In this document: positions 4,980-25,892 of the stretch, in pieces
How the letters are laid out: the number at the start of each line of letters is the position of its first letter
How positions within the stretch are numbered: the first letter of the stretch is position 1
Source: Synechococcus sp. A15-24
GTDB taxonomy: Bacteria > Cyanobacteriota > Cyanobacteriia > PCC-6307 > Cyanobiaceae
Reading direction: 5' to 3'
DNA: 32,000 nt
Assembly (NCBI RefSeq): GCF_014280195.1
Contig: NZ_CP047960.1
Span: 2,070,001 to 2,102,000, forward strand
The notes under the pieces: model-generated
What the model saw: only the letters and a program-made list of their open reading frames with translations
Databases searched by the model: none
What the model was told of the DNA's origin: nothing
Program-made: the position numbers and the translations under genes

Positions 4980-6620
4980 TTGCGGTTGAGCGGACTGTAT
5001 GGGAAAGGCCAGGCTGATCACGATGCGGCGAACTGCTTGTCGACACAACACCGAACAAAGCTCAGGATCCAGACCGGTGATCTCGACGGTCTACTTGGAC
5101 TGGGCCTGAACAACCTGATTCAAGTCCTGCTGATCATCAGCCTGTGCCGCGGCGTGCTCGGCTTCCCCGACAGTCTGCTGTTCGGAATAATCCTGCCGGC
5201 GACAGGGATCAGCCTGCTGCTGGGAAACCTGATCTATGCCCAGCAGGCCCGGAGGCTGGGCCAAGCCGAGCAGAGGGGCGACTGCACAGCGCTCCCCTAC
5301 GGCGTCAACACGGTGAGCCTGTTCGCCTTTGTGTTTCTGGTGATGCTGCCGGCCAAGTTGTCTGCTCTCGATGCAGGACTGAGCGAGGCCGAGGCCGTGC
5401 AGCGCTCCTGGCAGGTGGGATTAATAGCTTGCCTAGGGTCCGGTGTCATCGAAACCCTGGGTGCCTTTGTTGCCCAGCACTTACGGCGCTGGTTACCTCG
5501 GGCTGCGCTGCTCTCCACCCTGGCGGGCATTGCGCTGGGCTACATCGCCCTGGGATTTTTGCTGCGCACCTACGCCAATCCCCTGATTTGCCTCACCAGC
5601 CTGAGCGTGATCCTGCTGGGCTATCTCGCCAGGGTGCGCTGGCCACTGCCGACGGGACTGCTGGCCTTGCTGCTGGGCATGGTTCTGGCCTGGGGGAGCG
5701 GACTGATCTCTCCCGATGCTGCGAGCTGGACGCAGGCTGCCCGTGCCATCGGCGTGCACCTCCCAAGTCTCCAGCTGTCTGCGCTCTGGCAAAGCCGCTT
5801 TGATCTGATCCCCTGGATGGGGGTGATCTTGCCGATGGGGCTGTTCAACCTGATCGGCTCACTGCAAAACCTGGAGAGTGCGGCAGCAGCCGGCGACACC
5901 TACCCAACACGCGGCAGCTTGATGGTGGATGGCTGCGGCACCCTCACAGCTGCGGCCCTGGGCTCCTGTTTTCCGACAACCCTCTACATCGGGCATCCGG
6001 GCTTCAAAGCCCTGGGGGCCCGCTCGGCCTACTCCTGGATGAACGGAGTGGTGATGGCCGTCGGCTGCCTGTTCGGCCTGTTCGGGGTGGTGACTGTGCT
6101 GATCCCAGTGGAAGCGGGGCTAGCGATCCTGCTGTACATCGGCCTGGCCATGGCCTCGCAAGCCTTCGCCTCAACATCTGAGCGCCATGGTCCGGCCGTG
6201 GTGCTCGGGATGCTTCCTGGTGTGGCGGGCTGGGGCGCACTGATGCTCAAAGCTGGCATCCGAGCCGGAGGAGCAGCGGGTGATCCCAAGCTGTTCGGGC
6301 CGCAGCTGCTGACGCAACTGGCCACGGCCGACATCTGGGCCGCTGGCGTGTTTGCACTGGAGCAGGGGCAGATCATCACGGCCATGTTGCTTTCGGCCTG
6401 GCTTGTGTATGCGATTGAAAGTCGCTTTCTGGCCGCCGCCTGTTGCTCCGCCATGGCCGCGCTACTGGCCTGGTTCGGCGTCATCCATGCCTGGCAGTTC
6501 AGTCCGGGGGACACGGTGATGCACTTGGGCTGGGGAACAGGCCGAGCTTGGGCGGAGGGTTACGCCGCCATCACGGTGATTGTCCTATTGGCGCGATGGC
6601 GCCAACAAACGGACCATTGA
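4980..6620 (+). CDS. Polytopic membrane permease, xanthine/uracil/vitamin C (NCS2/AzgA-like) family
   Basis: 546-aa ORF with many hydrophobic segments. 'GDLDGLLGLGLNNLIQ', 'ALPYGVNT' and glycine-rich helices are typical of AzgA-type nucleobase permeases. The start is uncertain. 4980 is a TTG only 8 nt from the divergent nadC start. An in-frame TTG at 5037 is an alternative. Confidence 0.6.
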   Translation: MRLSGLYGKGQADHDAANCLSTQHRTKLRIQTGDLDGLLGLGLNNLIQVLLIISLCRGVLGFPDSLLFGIILPATGISLLLGNLIYAQQARRLGQAEQRGDCTALPYGVNTVSLFAFVFLVMLPAKLSALDAGLSEAEAVQRSWQVGLIACLGSGVIETLGAFVAQHLRRWLPRAALLSTLAGIALGYIALGFLLRTYANPLICLTSLSVILLGYLARVRWPLPTGLLALLLGMVLAWGSGLISPDAASWTQAARAIGVHLPSLQLSALWQSRFDLIPWMGVILPMGLFNLIGSLQNLESAAAAGDTYPTRGSLMVDGCGTLTAAALGSCFPTTLYIGHPGFKALGARSAYSWMNGVVMAVGCLFGLFGVVTVLIPVEAGLAILLYIGLAMASQAFASTSERHGPAVVLGMLPGVAGWGALMLKAGIRAGGAAGDPKLFGPQLLTQLATADIWAAGVFALEQGQIITAMLLSAWLVYAIESRFLAAACCSAMAALLAWFGVIHAWQFSPGDTVMHLGWGTGRAWAEGYAAITVIVLLARWRQQTDH

Positions 6621-6640: not shown

Positions 6641-6653
6641 ATTTGCCAATGCA
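6641..6653. repeat. Left copy of the 13-bp direct repeat ATTTGCCAATGCA (attL-like)
   Basis: Identical to 9606-9618. Read on the minus strand it gives ..C-I-G-K followed by TGA (6639-6641), a duplicate of the MnmE C-terminus. Confidence 0.75.
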
Positions 6654-7057
6654 TAAGTTGTCAAGAAACCTAGTTGTCGCAGCAAGTATTACCCGAGCAA
6701 ATAAGTCTGTTGTGCAGCCAATATAAAAGGCAGAATTTGCTTAATGTTTCTGGAACGGTTCGACCTGATCCTGCAGCACGCCGTCTTCATCGTGGCTTGA
6801 AAAATGTGGCGTTTCGTAGCCCCCTCCCTTTAAGAATTAAGGTAATTTGCGATGTAGACGCCAGAAACATCGAATAAGCCTTCTAGACAGGCTCAGCGAC
6901 TTCCAAGCTCAGTAGTTAATTAGTTAGAAAACCGTATGACTTGTGAAGTAGAACTGCTGTTAGCGCTCCAAAACCTTAATAATTGTTGCATATTGGGCCC
7001 TTTTGCGCTGTTTTTCAATAGAAGAGTCAGTATAAAAGTAAATTTTGTGGGTAATTC

Positions 7058-9184
7058 ATGGAAGAAGAAAATTCTGCAGAACTAGATTTATTAGAAAATA
7101 TTTCTGAAAATCTTGAGTCAGTGCAGGAATCAGAACCTGTTTGGGAGGAACCTATTTGGGAGGAACCTGTTTTTGATGATGTCACGATCTCGTCGGTCGC
7201 ATGGGCTGGAAGTAAGCATTGGGATCGTGCTATCTACACGTTGTCTAATGGCAACACTGCTTTTGCTTCGAAAGGATTGGATGCCGGAGACTCCCCTTTT
7301 GATTACGAAGAAATCAGAACATCAGGGGGTGGTTATTTCAGTGATCCTGGAGGAATTGTCGGTCATACCCACACACGTAATGGCGGAGCTCTAATCATTA
7401 AGCAGGGTGAGTCCTTCCTGCAACAGCAATATGCCTGGGGTAATCAAGGGCCAGTGATGTCCCCCAACACTTCTGACGTCACAAAACAGATTGGCTCCAT
7501 TGAGGAGCGAGAACAGGAGGATATGAATGGTGATGGATTTATAGGTGCGCCTGAGGAAGATGAACCAGAGGTTGAGGTTTCCTCAATTGTTTACGAAAAT
7601 ACAGACGCTAATTTTGACAGATCTATCTATAAAATGACAGATGGTTCTGTTCGCTTAGCTGAACAGGGTCTCTCTATCGGAGATTTGCCTTATGAAGGGT
7701 ACGATCATCTAAAATCTAAAGATGGTTCTCCGATTGAAACGCTGGGAATTGTAGGAGCTATATGGATGAATAACGGGTTTGCTGTACTTTATAACAATGA
7801 TAGTGTCATAACTCAGCAGGCTTTTAAATGGGGAAATAGCGGTCTAAGACCGTCTGGCAGTTTACGCAATGTCACAAGGCAGATTGATACAATTGAAGAA
7901 CGTGAAGGTATTGATATTAATGGAGATGGTCGAGTAGGTAATGAGCTTTCAGAAGATGCTGAGGTTCAGTCGGTTGTTTACGATAATCCCGATGCTGGTT
8001 TTGACCGATCGATCTATAAAATGACTGACGGCACTGTTCGCTTGGCCGAACAGGGCCTCTCTGCCGGAGATTTGCCTTTTGAAGGAGATGATCTGTCAGA
8101 GAAAGACGGATCACCGCTTGGGATAGACGGCCTTGTAGGTATTCTTGGATTACGCAATGGTTTTGGCATAATTTACAATAACAATGGTTTTATTATGCAG
8201 CAACAATTTAAATGGGGGGGGAAAGGCATAAAAGCTAGCGGTCAGTTGCGCGATGTTACCAAACAGCTTGCTTTAATTGAGGAGCGTGAAGGCATTGATG
8301 TCAACGGTGATGGCCTGATAGGTGAGCAATTTGAAGAAGATGCTGAAGTTCTATCCGTTCTTTTTAGCCCTGATCCTGAAGCTTACGATCGCTCTCTCTA
8401 TGAACTCACCTCCGGGGATGTAGTTCTCGCAGAGATTGGACTTCGGCCTGGAGAAATACCTTTCGAGTCTGATCCTCTCTCCTACGCAAATGGCACATCT
8501 ATTGAAGCAGATCGCGTGGTCGGCCTAATTGGGACTAGAAGCGGAGAAGCAGTCATCTTCAAGAACGGAGATAGCTATTCCATGCAACAATTTAAGTGGG
8601 CTGGTCGAGGTTTAAAACCCAAAGGGAAAGAGCGTGATATTACGAGGAGAATCTACGAAGTCGAAGAACGTGAATATTATGACTTCACCGGTGATTTAAT
8701 CATTGGAGATCCTTCTTCATCCTCCAGTGATGATCTTGAGGTAAGAAGAGTAATTTTTCTTGGAAATGATGAATTCAGTGAAGGTCTCTACCAGATGGAT
8801 AATGGAGATTTGGTCTTTGCAGAGTCCGATCTTAGTCCTGGGGATACACCCTTTGAAGATGAAATCATTACTGGCAAAAACGGAAAGCCATACCAAGGAG
8901 ACTATGTCGTTGGGATTTATCCAATAAAGAATGGGTTTGCATTGATTGAGAATGTTGAAGGTATATATAAAGAGCAAGGATTCCGATTCAAAGGTGGTGG
9001 AAGGCCAAAACCCTTTGGGAAAGCACGCGCTGTAAAGGATATTGGCAAAATTGAATCAAAATATGGTTTTGATTTAGATAATGACGGATTGGTCGATGAT
9101 GGCAGTAATATAGATGACTTAGGGCCCGCTTTTCGATTGATTCAGCAACTCGATTTAAATAATATTTCAGACACCCTCGTCTAA
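7058..9184 (+). CDS. Acidic, cysteine-free tandem-repeat protein. Five ~130-aa modules each end in a DxNGDG/DxDxDG Ca-binding-like loop. No recognised family.
   Basis: 708-aa ORF, ATG start, the only long ORF in the low-GC island. Recurring anchors: [FWY]DR[SA][IL]Y.[ML][TS].G at aa 55, 186, 315 and 443 (R5 degenerate, FSEGLYQMDNG at 572); FKWG at aa 256, 384 and 512 (variants at 125 and 642); IEERE..D.NGDG at aa 148, 279 and 407 (degenerate at 535 and 664). No N-terminal signal peptide (MEEENSAELDLLEN..). No Cys in 708 aa. Confidence 0.8.
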   Translation: MEEENSAELDLLENISENLESVQESEPVWEEPIWEEPVFDDVTISSVAWAGSKHWDRAIYTLSNGNTAFASKGLDAGDSPFDYEEIRTSGGGYFSDPGGIVGHTHTRNGGALIIKQGESFLQQQYAWGNQGPVMSPNTSDVTKQIGSIEEREQEDMNGDGFIGAPEEDEPEVEVSSIVYENTDANFDRSIYKMTDGSVRLAEQGLSIGDLPYEGYDHLKSKDGSPIETLGIVGAIWMNNGFAVLYNNDSVITQQAFKWGNSGLRPSGSLRNVTRQIDTIEEREGIDINGDGRVGNELSEDAEVQSVVYDNPDAGFDRSIYKMTDGTVRLAEQGLSAGDLPFEGDDLSEKDGSPLGIDGLVGILGLRNGFGIIYNNNGFIMQQQFKWGGKGIKASGQLRDVTKQLALIEEREGIDVNGDGLIGEQFEEDAEVLSVLFSPDPEAYDRSLYELTSGDVVLAEIGLRPGEIPFESDPLSYANGTSIEADRVVGLIGTRSGEAVIFKNGDSYSMQQFKWAGRGLKPKGKERDITRRIYEVEEREYYDFTGDLIIGDPSSSSSDDLEVRRVIFLGNDEFSEGLYQMDNGDLVFAESDLSPGDTPFEDEIITGKNGKPYQGDYVVGIYPIKNGFALIENVEGIYKEQGFRFKGGGRPKPFGKARAVKDIGKIESKYGFDLDNDGLVDDGSNIDDLGPAFRLIQQLDLNNISDTLV
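7178..9112 (+). repeat. Five tandem coding repeats of ~385-393 bp (approx. 7178-7567, 7568-7960, 7961-8344, 8345-8737, 8738-9112)
   Basis: Protein-level periodicity is 128-131 aa. Repeats 2 and 3 are also visibly similar at DNA level (e.g. ATCTATAAAATGAC and CGGAGATTTGCCTT are shared). Repeats 1, 4 and 5 are more diverged. Confidence 0.8.
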
Positions 9185-9603
9185 TGTTTAATACCTTCAT
9201 ACTTTACTTAGTCGGCCAAGGAGAAACATGTGAATAACGCTCAACTAATACTTGCCATACCCTTTTGATTAACCTCTCTTAACTTCTGAGCTGAGCAATT
9301 CGGGAAGTAGCTGGAATTGCTGGCACAAAATCATTAACTTGTACTGAAAGAAAGTTTATTCCTTCCTTAAATGCCACATTCAATAAAATGGCCCGAAATA
9401 GTCATCAAATAAATAGCTGACTTAAATCTTCATCGTTTTAGTGCTATAGATTTTCAATTGATGAGCAACCTGCTTTATACTGTCTTAGCAACAGCAAAAA
9501 TGTTGCCAATGTCGAGCCATGTTGAGTGGAGCAATGCACAATTGCTCAACAAGTTTTGCTATATTTTGCCAGATGTTTGCAATGCTTTTCAAGGTTTGCT
9601 GAA

Positions 9604-10932
9604 TTATTTGCCAATGCAGAAACGGGAAAATACGCGATCAAGCACCGCTTCAGTAAGCTCTTCGCCCGTGATCTCCCCCAGGGCACTGATCGCCTCGCGC
9701 AGGTCGATCGTCCAGAAATCCCAGGGCAATTGCTGGGCCGCGACCTCCTGACTGCGGCCAAGAGCAGCGGCGGCAGTAGCGGCCAGATCCCTTTGGCGCT
9801 CGTTCAGAGCTAGTAGCACCCCTTCAGTGCCTGCAGCCCCACAACGCTCCAGCAGAGCCTGCACCAGGTCTTCCTCACCCGTGCCCTCCAACGCCGACAG
9901 CTGCACATCCACTGGCTGGGGCAAGGCCCCCGCGGGAAGATCCGCCTTGTTGGCGACAAGGATCCTGGGGATGTGCTCTGGGATTCGCGCCAGCAAAGCA
10001 GCGTCTTCGGCGGTCCAGCCCGCATGACCATCGAGTACTAATAGCACCACATCCGCCGTGGCCAGAGCCTCTTCGCTGCGGGCAATTCCCAGCTGTTCCA
10101 CCGCATCGTCGGTGCTTCGAATGCCGGCGGTATCGAGCAGGGTGATCGGCACCCCCTCCAATACGATCTCGCTCTCCAGCAGATCACGGGTGGTACCCGG
10201 CAGCTCGGTCACAATCGCCCGCTCGCGCCGGCTGAGCCGATTCAAAAGCGAGCTCTTGCCCACGTTGGGGCGGCCCACCAACGCCACCCGAAGACCGCTG
10301 CGCAGGGTTTCCCCGCGCTCTCCATCCGCCACCAGGGTGAGCAATGCCTGGCGCACCTGCTGCAAGTCATGCAGCAAGGCATCACCATCCAACGGCGGCA
10401 GATCCTCTTCGAAATCCACCCGCGCCTCCAGCTCGGTGAGCTGATCCAGCAGCTGCTCGCGCAATGTTGTGATCCGAGCCTGAATGCCGCCATCCAGGCC
10501 GGCGATGGCCAGGTCCGCTGCCCGCCGACTGCGGGCCGCCACCAACTGACTGATGGCTTCGGCACGGGTGAGATCCAGACGGCCGTTCAGCACGGCCCGC
10601 TGGCTGAATTCTCCGGGCAACGCCCGCCGCACCCCCGGATGCGCAAGCACCCGTTCCAGCACCTGCTGCACAGCGATCACCCCGCCATGGCAGTGGATCT
10701 CCACCACGTCCTCACCGGTGAAGCTGCGAGGTCCGCGCATCAGCAGCAGCAACACCTCATCCAGGCGTCGCTGACCATCAGCACCGAGCACATGGCCGTA
10801 GAGCACCCGGTGGGACTGCCAGTCCTGCTGGCCTGGAACGTGGACGACCGCTTGACCGACGTCCTCCGCCGCCGGGCCAGAGACACGCACCACGGCGATT
10901 CCCCCCTGGCCCGGCGCCACGGCTGTCGCCAC
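9604..10932 (-). CDS. mnmE: tRNA modification GTPase MnmE (TrmE/ThdF)
   Basis: 'GQGGIAVVRVSG', the G-domain 'GRPNVGKSSLLN' and 'DTAGIR', and the C-terminal 'FCIGK' signature. 10932 is a GTG. The conserved N-terminal residues (..SDTIAAV) are encoded upstream of it with no canonical start, so the real start may be CTG at 10957-10959. Confidence 0.9.
   Translation of the reverse strand: MATAVAPGQGGIAVVRVSGPAAEDVGQAVVHVPGQQDWQSHRVLYGHVLGADGQRRLDEVLLLLMRGPRSFTGEDVVEIHCHGGVIAVQQVLERVLAHPGVRRALPGEFSQRAVLNGRLDLTRAEAISQLVAARSRRAADLAIAGLDGGIQARITTLREQLLDQLTELEARVDFEEDLPPLDGDALLHDLQQVRQALLTLVADGERGETLRSGLRVALVGRPNVGKSSLLNRLSRRERAIVTELPGTTRDLLESEIVLEGVPITLLDTAGIRSTDDAVEQLGIARSEEALATADVVLLVLDGHAGWTAEDAALLARIPEHIPRILVANKADLPAGALPQPVDVQLSALEGTGEEDLVQALLERCGAAGTEGVLLALNERQRDLAATAAAALGRSQEVAAQQLPWDFWTIDLREAISALGEITGEELTEAVLDRVFSRFCIGK
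9606..9618. repeat. Right copy of the 13-bp direct repeat ATTTGCCAATGCA (attR-like). It overlaps the last codons of mnmE.
   Basis: Identical to 6641-6653. The minus strand encodes ..F-C-I-G-K-TAA (stop 9604-9606). Confidence 0.75.
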
Positions 10933-22372: not shown

Positions 22373-23449
22373 TCAAGCCAGTGGCGCACGGCTCAGCTCC
22401 TTGCGCATCGCGCTGACGATGCAGCGATTGTTCCGCCGTGACTGCAGACCGATCCGGAGCCAGTTCTCTCCCAGCCCTTCAAACGAACGGCAATCACGCA
22501 GAAGGATCCTGTGGTGCAGCTCCAGCGCTTGGCGCAGGGGCAGCAGGGATCGGTTCGCCCGAATCAGCAGGTAATTCACTGCTGATGGCATGGGGGTGAT
22601 GCCAGGCAGCAACGCAAGCTGCTGCTGCATCCAGGCTCCTTCCCGCGCCACCCAAGCCTGCGTTTGCCGACACCAGCGCTGATGGCGACGGGGGGATCCC
22701 AACAAGCGTTGGCCAACGGCCATGGCAATGCCATTCACAGGCCAGGGATCGCGCCACTGAGCCCAGCGCTGCAGGCGTTCGGGCTGTGCAACGGCATACC
22801 CGAGCCGCAACCCGGCAATGCCATAGAGCTTGGTGAGGCTGCGGATCACCACCAGATTTCCGGTCTTGGCCACCAACGGAATCAACGACTGCTGCTCGCC
22901 CGCGGGCACCAGCGGCAGAAAGGCTTCATCGCAGATCACCAGACGAAACCGCTTCAGCAACGGTTCCAGAAATGCCCGACTCCAGAGCTGACCTGTGGGG
23001 TTGTGGGGGTTGCAGATCCACAACACCTCAGCCTCAGCAGGCGATGGAAAGGGTTGAGGACGATCACCACTCCAGGAGAGCGGCAGCTGGTGACGGATCC
23101 AGGACCCATCCCAACAACCCAGGGCTCGGCTGTAATCGGCGAACCCTGGCGATGGCACCAAGCTCAGGCCTGAACTGGCCGCATCTCGCGCCGCCCAGGT
23201 GAACAGTTCCGCCGCCCCGTTCCCCACCAGCAACAGCTCGGAGGGAACACCATGCAGCCGCGCCAGGTCGCATCGCAGCTGGTTATGACTGCGATCTGGA
23301 TAGTCACGGATAATCGATCGGCTGAGGCGAGGCAGACGCGGGGTCCAGGGCACGAGCGACGCACTGGCATCCAGCAGATCAGAGGGTCGGCAGCCGAGGC
23401 GCTCGGCGATCGAAGCTCGGTTGCCGCCGTGACGGTGCTCGACGTCCAT
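22373..23449 (-). CDS. cobD: L-threonine-O-3-phosphate decarboxylase-like aminotransferase (CobD family)
   Basis: The ATG at 23447-23449 gives 'MDVEHRHGGN..', the HGGN N-terminus typical of CobD. Also 'NPHNPTG' and 'IRSLTKLYGIAGLRLGY'. The 156 codons upstream in the same open frame are a secretin remnant, not part of this enzyme. Confidence 0.75.
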   Translation of the reverse strand: MDVEHRHGGNRASIAERLGCRPSDLLDASASLVPWTPRLPRLSRSIIRDYPDRSHNQLRCDLARLHGVPSELLLVGNGAAELFTWAARDAASSGLSLVPSPGFADYSRALGCWDGSWIRHQLPLSWSGDRPQPFPSPAEAEVLWICNPHNPTGQLWSRAFLEPLLKRFRLVICDEAFLPLVPAGEQQSLIPLVAKTGNLVVIRSLTKLYGIAGLRLGYAVAQPERLQRWAQWRDPWPVNGIAMAVGQRLLGSPRRHQRWCRQTQAWVAREGAWMQQQLALLPGITPMPSAVNYLLIRANRSLLPLRQALELHHRILLRDCRSFEGLGENWLRIGLQSRRNNRCIVSAMRKELSRAPLA

Positions 23450-23599
23450 CGCGACTCCCGATACAACCCAGAGACACCCCCCAGCGTCGCCCACCGCGCC
23501 CATGGCGATTCGAGCTGTCCTGCTGTTGTCGCTGGTGCTGGTCACCACCCCGAAGGCATGGAGCGCTGATGCCAAGGATCTGGTCCGAATACTGAAAAG

Positions 23600-24158
23600 C
23601 GGGCGCTGAACCAGCTGACGCCCTGCCGGCGTGCCAGGGCGATAGCCGTAACCGAAGCGACCGCCCTGCTCATCATCCAGAATGGTCGGCGTGACGATGA
23701 TTACCAATTCGTTCTTTTCCCGAGACGACGAGGACTGACAGAACAGCTGCCCAATCAGCGGCATGTCGCCAAGAATCGGCCATTTACGCACCTGCTGACG
23801 GTCCGAATCGGTAATCACACCCGTAAGAATCAACGACTGTCCATCACGGAGGCGGATGCTTCCAGACTCCAATTTTCGAGCCTGAATGTTGAAGATTCCG
23901 ACACCTTCTTCCGACACCTTCCTGCGTTCCGGCAGGAATCTGCACAGATATTTCAGGCTTCAGCTCAAGACTGATAAATCCATTGTCATCAATTTTGCTC
24001 ACCGAAAGATCAACTGTGAGGCCAGCATTCTCGCGAGTGTTCTGAAACTGTGTTGAACCATTGGCTGTTTCCGTAGCACTCACCCCTTTAATCACACTCT
24101 GGCCAGTTTCTACCATGGCGGCTTCCCCTTCCTGCACCAACAATGTGGGCTGGGCCAA
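23600..24158 (-). pseudogene. pilQ: Type IV pilus / type II secretion secretin (PilQ/GspD family), C-terminal domain remnant. N-terminally truncated and frameshifted.
   Basis: Two ORF pieces. '..AQPTLLVQEGEAAMVETGQSV..GLTVDLSVSKIDDNGFISLELKPEISV..' is at 23844..24158. '..IFNIQARKLESGSIRLRDGQSLILTGVI......VRKWPILGDMPLIGQLF......NELVIIVTPTIL' is at 23680-23900. They join perfectly if one 13-bp repeat unit is removed. Only ~540 bp, stop-ridden in all frames, separates it from pyrD, so the N0/N1/AMIN region is missing. Confidence 0.75.
23896..23921. repeat. Exact 13-bp tandem duplication TTCCGACACCTTC x2 (minus strand GAAGGTGTCGGAA x2) that frameshifts the secretin
   Basis: 23896-23908 equals 23909-23921 base for base. 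Both secretin ORF pieces contain 'EGVG' translated from the two copies. Confidence 0.95.
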
Positions 24159-24701
24159 TAGACACCACTTACAGGGAGCAGCAGCTCAAGCTGAACACCG
24201 ACCACATCACTATCAAAGAGAAGTTCCTCCAGCGCCTCGCTCATCGCCTTGCGCTGCATTGGCATGCCATCACGGCAGGCATCAGGGGGCCAATCAACGG
24301 ATCGCCAGTACCAGATCGACTTGTGCAGCCAGCAACAGATCAATCGACGCTCTGTGGCCAAAGCCAGAACTCGACGCACGCCAAGAAGACGCTTCAAGCC
24401 AGTCTGAAAAGCCTGAACCTGAGGAATTTCAACCAGGGACAGCGGACTCAATCAGACACATTGTTTTGACCCAGGATATCCAGATCGTAGCAAGAAGACA
24501 AGACAAATTTTATAGGCAATGCAGGCAACTCATTCACCTGGTTTTCATCAAAAAAATCTTTAATCGCGATCAACAATCAAATCACTCCACTCTTTGATTC
24601 TGAGTTAACGAAGCATAGTGAAATCAAAAAACGATCATCAATTCCTGATGGAGTCACTCCGCCAATCTTGAAGTAAGCCAATTGAATCTTTAACCCCCGA
24701 A

Positions 24702-25892
24702 TCAGCTTTCAGCATCCTCTGAACCGGGCAGCCAGGGCAAGCCACTGCCCACCGCTTCTGAGATGTTTCGCAAGCCATAGCGGTCCAACTGCAGCTGAAG
24801 CCCTTCAAGGATGCGAGGCACCAGATCCGGACCCTGGAAAATCCAGCCGGTGTAGAGCTGAATCAACGTGGCTCCGGCGGTGATCCTCTCCCAGGCGATC
24901 TCTGCCGAATCAATGCCTCCAACTCCGACAAGCGTTAACGCCGGACCGGCACTGGCCCGCAACCTGCGGATCACCTCCAGTGCCCTTAGCCGCAGGGGCG
25001 CACCACTGAGCCCACCCGCCTCCTCCGCCAGGGTTCGGCCGGTCTGCAACAACCGACGCTGCTCCAATCCCAGGCGATCCAGGCTGGTGTTCACAGCAAT
25101 CACCCCGGCCAGACCCTCCTCGAAGGCCACCCGGGCAATGCCATCAATCGCCTCATCCTCAAGATCCGGTGCGATCTTCACCAGCAACGGTGGACAGGCA
25201 GGCAAGCGACGCAGCCGCTCCACCAGCCGCCGCAACTGGCTGGAATCCTGCAGATCCCTCAGCCCAGGGGTATTGGGAGAACTCACATTGATCACGGCGT
25301 AATCCGCTAAAGGGGCCAATAGCTCCAGCGAAGAGGCGTAATCCTCAGGGGCCTGTTCCAACGCGGTGACCTTGGATTTACCGACGTTGATTCCCAGGAC
25401 TGCCGGGCGACGACCGGGGGGATCCAGCCGTTGACGTTCCAGGGTTCTACGCAACGCCTGGGCTCCATCGTTGTTGAACCCCATCCGATTGAGAGCTGCC
25501 TGTTCCTGAGCCAGGCGAAACAACCGGGGTCGGGGATTGCCGGGCTGGCCATGCCAGGTGACCGTGCCCACCTCCGCGAAACCAAAGCCAAAGCGATCCC
25601 ACAGCCCTGCCGCCACCCCGTTCTTGTCGAAACCAGCCGCAAGACCCACTGGGTTGGGGAAGCGGCAACCGAACAACACCTGCTCGAGCCGCAAATCACG
25701 GCGCTGCAGATCACCGGCCAGGCCCTCCAGCACCGTGGAGACCAGCGGCCACTGGCGCCGCAGCGACGCTTGTCCTAAGGCAGTCAGTGCTGTGCGGGAC
25801 AGCTGTTCAGCATCGAGCCCCTCGTCATTGGCGAGCACAGGCCCCAGCCAACGCTGATAGAACGCGCCGCTGCTGAGAGGGGATGGCGGCAT
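24702..25892 (-). CDS. pyrD: Dihydroorotate dehydrogenase (quinone), class 2
   Basis: 396 aa. '[15 protein letters not shown]', 'GFGF.EVGTVT...Q.GNP.PR.FR', 'NRMGFNN.G', 'GINVGKSK', '[12 protein letters not shown]' motifs. Confidence 0.9.

Follow-up and report, generated by a model that had tools for sequence, protein, structure and literature searches.

The 32,000-nucleotide stretch of the Synechococcus sp. A15-24 genome analysed here (contig NZ_CP047960.1, positions 2,070,001 to 2,102,000; referred to below as the window) contains a gene for a 708-amino acid (aa) protein that is annotated as 'hypothetical protein'. The protein consists of five tandem modules that belong, as a divergent branch, to the W_rich_C (PF07483) superfamily, and the gene is the only one in a low-GC cassette whose insertion site, the 3' end of mnmE, is empty in other natural sequences. 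On balance, the protein is probably an exported structural or binding protein, in which an acidic spacer precedes five putatively Ca2+-binding W_rich_C-like modules, that would leave the cell by a type I route and is carried on a mobile one-gene cassette. W_rich_C-type domains occur in exported proteins of abundant marine cyanobacteria, yet their structure and function are blank. The superfamily now gains a confident domain model, a candidate metal site (E-x5-D-x-N-x-D) and a membership much wider than that recognized by Pfam.

Comparison with four orthologs gave ratios of nonsynonymous to synonymous substitution rates of 0.10-0.24; the gene is therefore a functional coding gene under purifying selection. 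Aspartate and glutamate (132 residues) greatly outnumber lysine and arginine (60 residues), resulting in an isoelectric point (pI) of 4.23, and there is not one cysteine in the 708 residues. The N-terminus is strongly acidic and, since the maximum Kyte-Doolittle hydrophobicity (15-aa window) within aa 1-60 was only 0.81, it has no signal-like hydrophobic segment; neither a transmembrane segment nor a signal peptide was found in the protein. A preliminary description of this DNA had called attention to the acidic N-terminus without a signal sequence and to the complete absence of cysteine, both of which were confirmed. The N-terminal spacer, predicted to be disordered, terminates in EP-x-WEEP repeats that correspond to 15-nt tandem repeats at 7133-7179. 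The spacer is a variable part of the family. Extra 24-nt DLEPVQES units are present in the spacer of a metagenomic homolog (contig L004, 3113-3230), long poly-Pro or PEPE tracts of variable length replace the acidic spacer in other homologs (as seen among the N-termini of P0001-P0047), and the length of the spacer varies even within the query's 90% identity cluster (proteins of 695-745 aa). The extreme C-terminus has a family consensus, [FS]R.I.P.D.....D-[PST]-L-[AVGL].

The five modules (Table 1) have pairwise identities of 27-62% and align almost without gaps, with the anchor motifs in register. A hidden Markov model (HMM) of the module recovered each module over its whole length, both in the query and in 40 homologs with 3-6 copies (4-6 in complete proteins and as few as 3 in truncated ones). 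Acidic or Ser-rich linkers lie between the modules, the tandem copies extend almost to the C-terminus, and each module contains 0-3 tryptophans, one of which is semi-conserved (FKW). Module 3, modelled with AlphaFold2 using a 45-module alignment, was predicted to be a confident single domain (predicted local distance difference test, pLDDT, 93.3; predicted template modelling score, pTM, 0.84) with eight β-strands, the last four forming a hairpin meander, a helix at residues 101-111, and then the D-x-N-G-D-G loop. The HMM recovery, the in-register alignment and the same predicted unit of eight strands and a helix repeated five times bear out the earlier proposal of five tandem modules of approximately 130 aa. 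Some of the details had to be amended. The DxNGDG or DLDNDG loop said to end each module, D-x-[DN]-x-[DN]-G in general form, is canonical in modules 1, 2, 3 and 5 (4 of 5), but degenerate in module 4. The anchors do recur in register, but FKWG is exact only in modules 2 and 3, being replaced by YAWG in module 1, FKWA in module 4 and FRFK in module 5, and DRSIY, although recurrent, is missing from module 5.

Pfam and NCBIfam scans of the 708-aa protein gave no match, even at E ≤ 10. An exhaustive HMMER search of 1.84 billion representative proteins with a profile made from 45 non-redundant modules matched 166 proteins at E ≤ 1e-3, of which 73 reached E ≤ 1e-10. The distant relatives found in this way are multidomain proteins of up to 3,352 aa with 2-12 modules, usually at the extreme C-terminus, in which the module typically ends in ...YDLDLNGD..ISLVGQE..P.GW. 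PF07483 matched 14 of 61 relatives at E ≤ 0.01 and, wherever coordinates were obtained, the match was inside the module and ended where the module ended. The relative P0057, for example, scored 41.7 bits against PF07483 (gathering cut-off 26.2) over residues 692-759, within the module match at 633-761; the module profile matched the same protein with E=2.6e-42, and BLASTP aligned it with the query (E=7e-23) with the modules in register and approximately 24% identity. The 708-aa protein itself does not reach the PF07483 gathering threshold of 26.2 bits, so that its membership of the superfamily is by homology to proteins that pass it. Because P0057 links the two profiles and the PF07483 matches overlap the module internally, the module is a divergent branch of W_rich_C, a domain of unknown function, in a superfamily that the Pfam model under-detects. 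The idea of a new repeat family, raised in the preliminary description, is not supported in that form, since the profile, BLASTP and overlap results all place the module with PF07483. The relationship does not bring with it a well-described domain of known function; W_rich_C is functionally blank, and no functional paper on PF07483 turned up in the literature that could be searched, where the domain is named only in a table of domain architectures.

The W_rich_C family is described as having several conserved tryptophans, a C-terminal position and, often, tandem copies. The query modules resemble it in size (approximately 105-125 aa), tandem arrangement and the terminal D-x-N-G-D loop; they differ in being poor in tryptophan and in their failure to match the Pfam model. 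Typically, two W_rich_C domains follow one another at the C-terminus, behind an enzyme or an RTX region, and end in ISLVGQE..P.GW, whereas the query protein is made up of modules only (4-6 in the family), together with a Pro/Glu spacer and its own conserved tail. Other identities were considered and rejected. There was no match to the RTX repeat (PF00353, or the regular expression GGxGxDxUx), nor to FG-GAP or VCBS (PF01839, PF13517 or the VCBS models), and the FG-GAP matches in the relatives were outside the module. EF-hand and dockerin models also gave no Pfam match; moreover, the loop is followed by a linker or a strand rather than a helix, and position 12 is not a conserved acidic residue. 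The likeness to FG-GAP, VCBS, dockerin and EF-hand that had been suggested does not, therefore, hold at the level of families. The module superfamily extends beyond the cyanobacteria: P0221 (CAN1500107.1, 1,949 aa), from a freshwater Burkholderiaceae bacterium, shares a 90% cluster with P0079, which has 12 module matches.

Conservation was compared in 176 modules of the close family and 135 modules of distant relatives (311 in total). E108 was conserved in 100% of the modules of both groups, D114 in 100% of the close and 99% of the distant modules, and D118 in 91% and 90%, respectively. The next most conserved positions were N116 (N, D or T), G119, I121 and G122, giving a superfamily pattern of E-x5-D-x-[NDT]-x-D-G-x-I-G. 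The motif is a DxDxDG-type loop entered from a helix, and the invariant glutamate six residues before the first aspartate is a candidate extra ligand. This acidic cluster, located at the C-terminal end of the module beside the linker, is the only strongly conserved polar feature of the superfamily, which suggests a structural Ca2+ site; E-x5-D-x-N-x-D is thus a probable Ca2+ site. The query loop, D-x-[ND]-x-D-G-x-[IV] after a helix, is similar to the loops of EF-hands, dockerins, FG-GAP/integrin and thrombospondin repeats, but differs from the EF-hand type in its context, helix-loop-(linker or strand), and in that the additional acidic candidate is six residues upstream and not at loop position 12.

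Several observations suggest that the 708-aa protein is likely an exported, Ca2+-stabilized modular protein, 1) 10 of 61 relatives have RTX repeats in the same chain as the module, 2) the other domains fused to it include Peptidase_M10/M10_C (serralysin), M8 (leishmanolysin), Calx-beta, FG-GAP, Big_5, Lectin_C, Laminin_G_3 and SWM_repeat, 3) a 1,961-aa protein of Synechococcus WH7805 (EAR17767.1) with five tryptophan-rich domains accounts for 0.67% of the exoproteome (PMC4949707), and 4) cysteine is distributed according to the presence of a signal peptide. Three close relatives with one or two modules (P0058, P0069 and P0083) open with the Sec signal MRKIFGVAGAIALSIIPNPVFS and contain 1.6-2.3% cysteine at paired positions, one pair of which brackets the loop (FCHYEE...DFNGNQISGC). 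In the signal-less proteins (n=99), the mean cysteine content was 0.077%, and cysteine was absent altogether from 38 of 41 members of the close family. Because the relatives with a Sec signal have paired cysteines and the signal-less ones are nearly cysteine-free, the latter would seem to be exported by a type I-like route that bypasses the periplasm. The combination of acidic pI, cysteine avoidance and lack of a signal peptide is the known profile of type I secretion system (T1SS) lipases and S-layer RTX proteins (PMC3034196), and the query, as expected of a type I substrate, has no cleavable N-terminal signal peptide.

A type I system is the best candidate for the export route. The protein would be organized as a disordered acidic spacer, five independently folding β-modules of approximately 125 aa arranged as beads, and a short, disordered, conserved tail. 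Given that there is no signal peptide and no cysteine, it would most likely exit unfolded, in one step, through a type I (ABC/membrane fusion protein/TolC-type) system encoded elsewhere in the genome, with the C-terminal tail serving as an uncleaved signal, and would fold outside the cell. Each module would bind one Ca2+ at its C-terminal end, adjoining the linker to the next module, so that the Ca2+ of seawater (approximately 10 mM) would stabilize the folded modules and stiffen the chain. The product would probably function at the surface or extracellularly, as a coat, a fibril or a multivalent binder. The extreme C-terminus of serralysin-type proteases, acidic and then hydrophobic, is required for secretion, and the family tail resembles it; the tail is a candidate uncleaved export or retention signal. 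To our knowledge, T1SS signals have no sequence consensus that could be tested, so the role of the tail as such a signal is conjecture.

The protein shares with RTX and other T1SS substrates, among them S-layer RTX proteins (for example, SwmA of Synechococcus), an acidic, cysteine-free and signal-less sequence, repeated Asp/Gly-rich putative Ca2+ sites and a conserved unstructured C-terminus, and in its relatives the module is fused to RTX blocks. It differs from RTX proteins in lacking GGxGxDxUx and in having a single helix-loop site in each 125-aa globular β-domain instead of a β-roll, and from T1SS substrates in that no linked secretion genes were found. Ca2+-rigidified tandem β-domains are known from T1SS adhesins (the BIg extender domains of the LapA/MpIBP type) and cadherins. 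The likeness extends to tandem β-domains, acidic sites at or near the junctions, variable copy number and, presumably, a surface location; the fold is different, there is no detectable homology, and the query is much shorter and lacks an N-terminal retention module.

Other results weigh against an exported, Ca2+-stabilized protein. The case for Ca2+ binding is one of motif conservation alone, and the fourth loop is degenerate. Genes for an ABC exporter, HlyD or TolC, to which T1SS substrates are commonly but not obligatorily linked, were not found in the 32-kb window, at loci L002-L010 or beside three distant relatives. RTX nonapeptides are absent from the protein as judged by both Pfam and regular expression, the signal-less homologs P0032 and P0039 contain cysteines, some of them shared with the Sec-signal sub-group, and the module has no solved structural relative to lend it a function. 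The earlier suggestion of a non-classically secreted surface protein thus has circumstantial support in the domain company, the exoproteome relative and the cysteine split, with no T1SS genes in the window.

It is conceivable, if unlikely, that the protein is exported by outer-membrane vesicles, a pilus-type or other non-classical pathway, or lysis, and that the tail is a surface retention or partner-binding motif. The absence of T1SS genes near the query gene and three distant relatives and of RTX repeats would then be accounted for, and marine Synechococcus exoproteomes contain signal-less 'non-classical' proteins (PMC4949707). However, single polypeptides are known that combine the module with RTX and serralysin-C domains, and the near-absolute avoidance of cysteine in the signal-less members is the pattern expected of one-step unfolded export. 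We consider it quite improbable that this acidic repeat protein stays inside the cell, where it might serve as a cytoplasmic scaffold or cation buffer, and that the extracellular associations of the distant relatives do not apply to it. While this would be in accord with the lack of a signal peptide, a transmembrane segment and nearby secretion genes, close two-module relatives have Sec signals and paired cysteines, and in distant relatives the domains joined to the module are all of extracellular types. Pro-rich or PEPE spacers and a variable number of repeats are typical of envelope proteins, and DxDxDG-type sites with an affinity in the millimolar range would be empty at cytoplasmic Ca2+ concentrations.

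Each half-module of the model is a four-strand antiparallel meander, and every Foldseek match, whether to the single module or to the full-length protein, was a β-propeller protein; in addition, the Ca2+ loops of FG-GAP-type propellers resemble DxNGDG. The five modules, as ten four-stranded meanders, might thus close into one or two propeller-like lectin bodies and form a compact, multivalent glycan or particle binder. This arrangement deserves little credence, in that a single module was predicted to fold confidently alone, whereas the full-length model (pTM 0.32) showed five units with no defined inter-module packing and a confidence that dipped to about 59-64 at the loop and linker segments. 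Moreover, the TM-scores to propellers were just 0.1-0.39, acidic or Ser-rich linkers part the modules, and a module number of 2-12 among the relatives is hard to fit to a closed ring. The module profile had no match to PDB sequences at E ≤ 10. Foldseek found no match of the module model to the PDB at E ≤ 0.001, the best being a fragment of a paraoxonase propeller (TMq 0.39), and the structure search against BFVD also gave no match. Propeller proteins were the only matches of the full-length model in the PDB, with a TM-score of approximately 0.1, and are read as a similarity of repetitive β-meanders, not a shared fold. The predicted module fold is, therefore, without a match among solved structures.

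The gene was described at the outset as cargo of a foreign-composition island, and this claim is now strongly supported by the codon usage, terminal repeats and precise empty sites. The GC content of the gene is 43%, as compared to 64% for the genome, and the GC content at third codon positions (GC3) is 0.34, as compared to 0.73-0.82 in the neighbours, indicating that the codon usage, and not just the amino acid composition, is foreign. The cassette is approximately 2.95 kb (2,965 nt from repeat start to repeat start) and, apart from the 708-aa gene, consists of noncoding DNA only, about 400 nt to either side of the gene. A 17-nt direct repeat marks both ends. Read on the minus strand, the left copy encodes ...LCIGK*, followed at once by native high-GC DNA, while the right copy encodes ...RFCIGK*, the native end of mnmE. 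None of 300 shuffles of the two boundary zones yielded such a repeat.

To look for empty sites, metagenomes were scanned for the junction expected without the island, which does not occur in the window. In three contigs (L015, L019 and L013), the permease flank is joined to the mnmE flank by a single 17-mer with no island; one of them, L015, is a Global Ocean Sampling contig that is 95.5% identical to both flanks. Two occupied sites (L004 and L020) have the repeat at both ends with 17 of 17 positions identical. The noncoding flanks of the island were conserved only in these near-identical loci, and not at other loci of the family. As judged from these junctions, the locus shows a Campbell-type insertion/excision polymorphism, and the predicted attP junction of the excised circle is ...CTGAATT-ATTTGCCAATGCAGAAG-TTGTCAAG... 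The identity between the occupied contigs is approximately 95%; they may all descend from one ancestral event, and site-specificity is only a candidate interpretation. The gene came in on a 2.95-kb cassette of its own, which entered at the 3' end of mnmE and is present in some members of wild populations and absent from others.

The cassette has the end repeats and the single-copy empty site of an integrative element, without an element-encoded integrase; no recombinase or integrase, phage gene or credible small open reading frame (ORF) was found in it. Rfam gave only a chance sub-threshold match on the island, and a consensus scan, which is uninformative for cyanobacteria, revealed no convincing plus-strand promoter or terminator. 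Transposon-type ends were rejected, since the sole 17-nt inverted pair is not terminal. The tycheposons of Prochlorococcus are att-flanked integrative elements (bioRxiv 10.1101/2020.12.28.424599). Like tycheposons and integrase-less cis-mobilizable elements (CIMEs), the cassette is low-GC cargo at the 3' end of a conserved gene, with a duplicated core and a polymorphic distribution in the population. It is different in that the target, mnmE, is protein-coding and not a tRNA or tmRNA gene, the core is 17 nt rather than approximately 40 nt, and a single gene is carried, with neither an integrase nor a replication module. With its defined ends and natural empty sites, the mnmE cassette is a tractable case in which to study how picocyanobacteria gain genes when no mobile element is evident.

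That the protein is instead derived from or interacts with cyanophage, as a receptor-binding domain, decoy or defence factor on a phage-related element, is very improbable: the GC of 43% and GC3 of 0.34 are close to typical cyanophage composition and the insertion is att-like, but tblastn found no match in 50,697 phage records, nor was there one in the IMG/VR contigs, BFVD gave no structural match, PADLOC no match and PHROGs only noise, and the cassette has no phage genes or integrase. By the same searches, nothing links the protein to defence against phage or grazing, and the proposed modulation of phage susceptibility or predation was not substantiated.

A word-indexed search of 5.8 billion proteins with the query returned 48 clusters, none of them annotated and most of them of marine metagenomic origin; the 90% cluster to which the query belongs comprises 107 sequences. 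The neighbouring genes are those of picocyanobacteria (psbC/psbD, ycf4, petM and similar genes) and the gene was found at three kinds of site: between the permease gene and mnmE (site A; the window, L004 and L020), recurrently between an rluD-like gene and infA (site B; L003, L006 and L007), and in islands of small ORFs (site C; L002 and L005). The GC content of the gene was 10-20 points under that of the flanks at every locus. At site B, where the members are apparently stable between core genes, the GC3 was 0.12-0.30 below that of the neighbours and the search for flanking repeats was negative; therefore, the gene family is low in GC wherever it occurs, and not only in recent insertions. At L005 (9513-11683), the nucleotide similarity starts at 9665, upstream of the called 560-aa P0023, and overlaps a separate 141-aa gene, so there is probably a frameshift or a wrong gene call in this homolog.

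Members of the all-module family are frequent in seawater metagenomes, are polymorphic even when near-identical genomes are compared, and invariably show foreign codon usage. Such a profile would be expected of flexible genes for the cell surface that influence interactions with phage, grazers and particles. Strain A15-24 belongs to clade III and, unusually for the clade, lacks swmA and swmB (PMC7522525). A bolder proposal, which we regard as speculative and doubtful, is that the module represents a previously unseen Ca2+-dependent β-fold that defines a large, unrecognized superfamily of extracellular W_rich_C-like domains, and that in marine picocyanobacteria its all-module versions move on integrase-less single-gene cassettes into the ends of conserved genes such as mnmE, where they provide a swappable coat that alters recognition by phage, grazers or particles and may partly replace the SwmA/SwmB layer.

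Table 1. Location of the 708-aa gene, its encoded segments and the surrounding cassette in the window
Feature	Position	Strand	Remarks
708-aa gene	7058..9184	+	ATG start; WP_186498169.1 / QNJ30198.1, Synechococcus sp. A15-24
N-terminal spacer, aa 1-40	7058..7177	+	Acidic, predicted disordered; pLDDT <50 for aa 1-38
Module 1, aa 41-171	7178..7570	+	Loop DMNGDG at 7520-7537 (residue 155)
Module 2, aa 172-300	7571..7957	+	Loop DINGDG at 7913-7930 (residue 286)
Module 3, aa 301-428	7958..8341	+	Loop DVNGDG at 8297-8314 (residue 414); modelled alone
Module 4, aa 429-559	8342..8734	+	Degenerate loop DFTGDL at 8681-8698 (residue 542), then Ser-rich linker
Module 5, aa 560-682 (end approximate, ~682)	8735..9103	+	Loop DLDNDG at 9071-9088 (residue 672)
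C-terminal tail, aa 683-708	9104..9181	+	Predicted disordered; pLDDT <50 for aa 682-708
Left 17-nt direct repeat, ATTTGCCAATGCATAAG	6641..6657		Left GC break of the island; matches right copy at 15/17
5' noncoding leader of island, ~400 nt	6658..7057	+	Low GC; no credible ORF, Rfam match or consensus promoter
3' noncoding region of island, ~420 nt	9185..9605	+	Low GC; no credible ORF or RNA family
Right 17-nt direct repeat, ATTTGCCAATGCAGAAA	9606..9622		Last codons (FCIGK) of native mnmE
mnmE (tRNA modification GTPase)	9604..10932	-	Target gene; 3' end carries the repeat core

Two other regions of the window were noted. The island is adjoined by a permease-like ORF (4980-6620, plus strand) that encodes a multi-pass membrane protein of 546 aa with no Pfam match at E ≤ 1e-5, and which is 90-95% identical in the metagenomic contigs L004, L015 and L019. 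Upstream of an aminotransferase gene, the ORF at 22373-23917 (minus strand) starts with the last 75 or so residues of a Secretin domain (PilQ-type), in frame (Pfam E=1.2e-20), and abuts a second patch of lower GC (52-54%, approximately 23500-25000), in which an ORF of 178 aa (24061-24597) lacks any Pfam match; another insertion may have truncated a secretin gene here.

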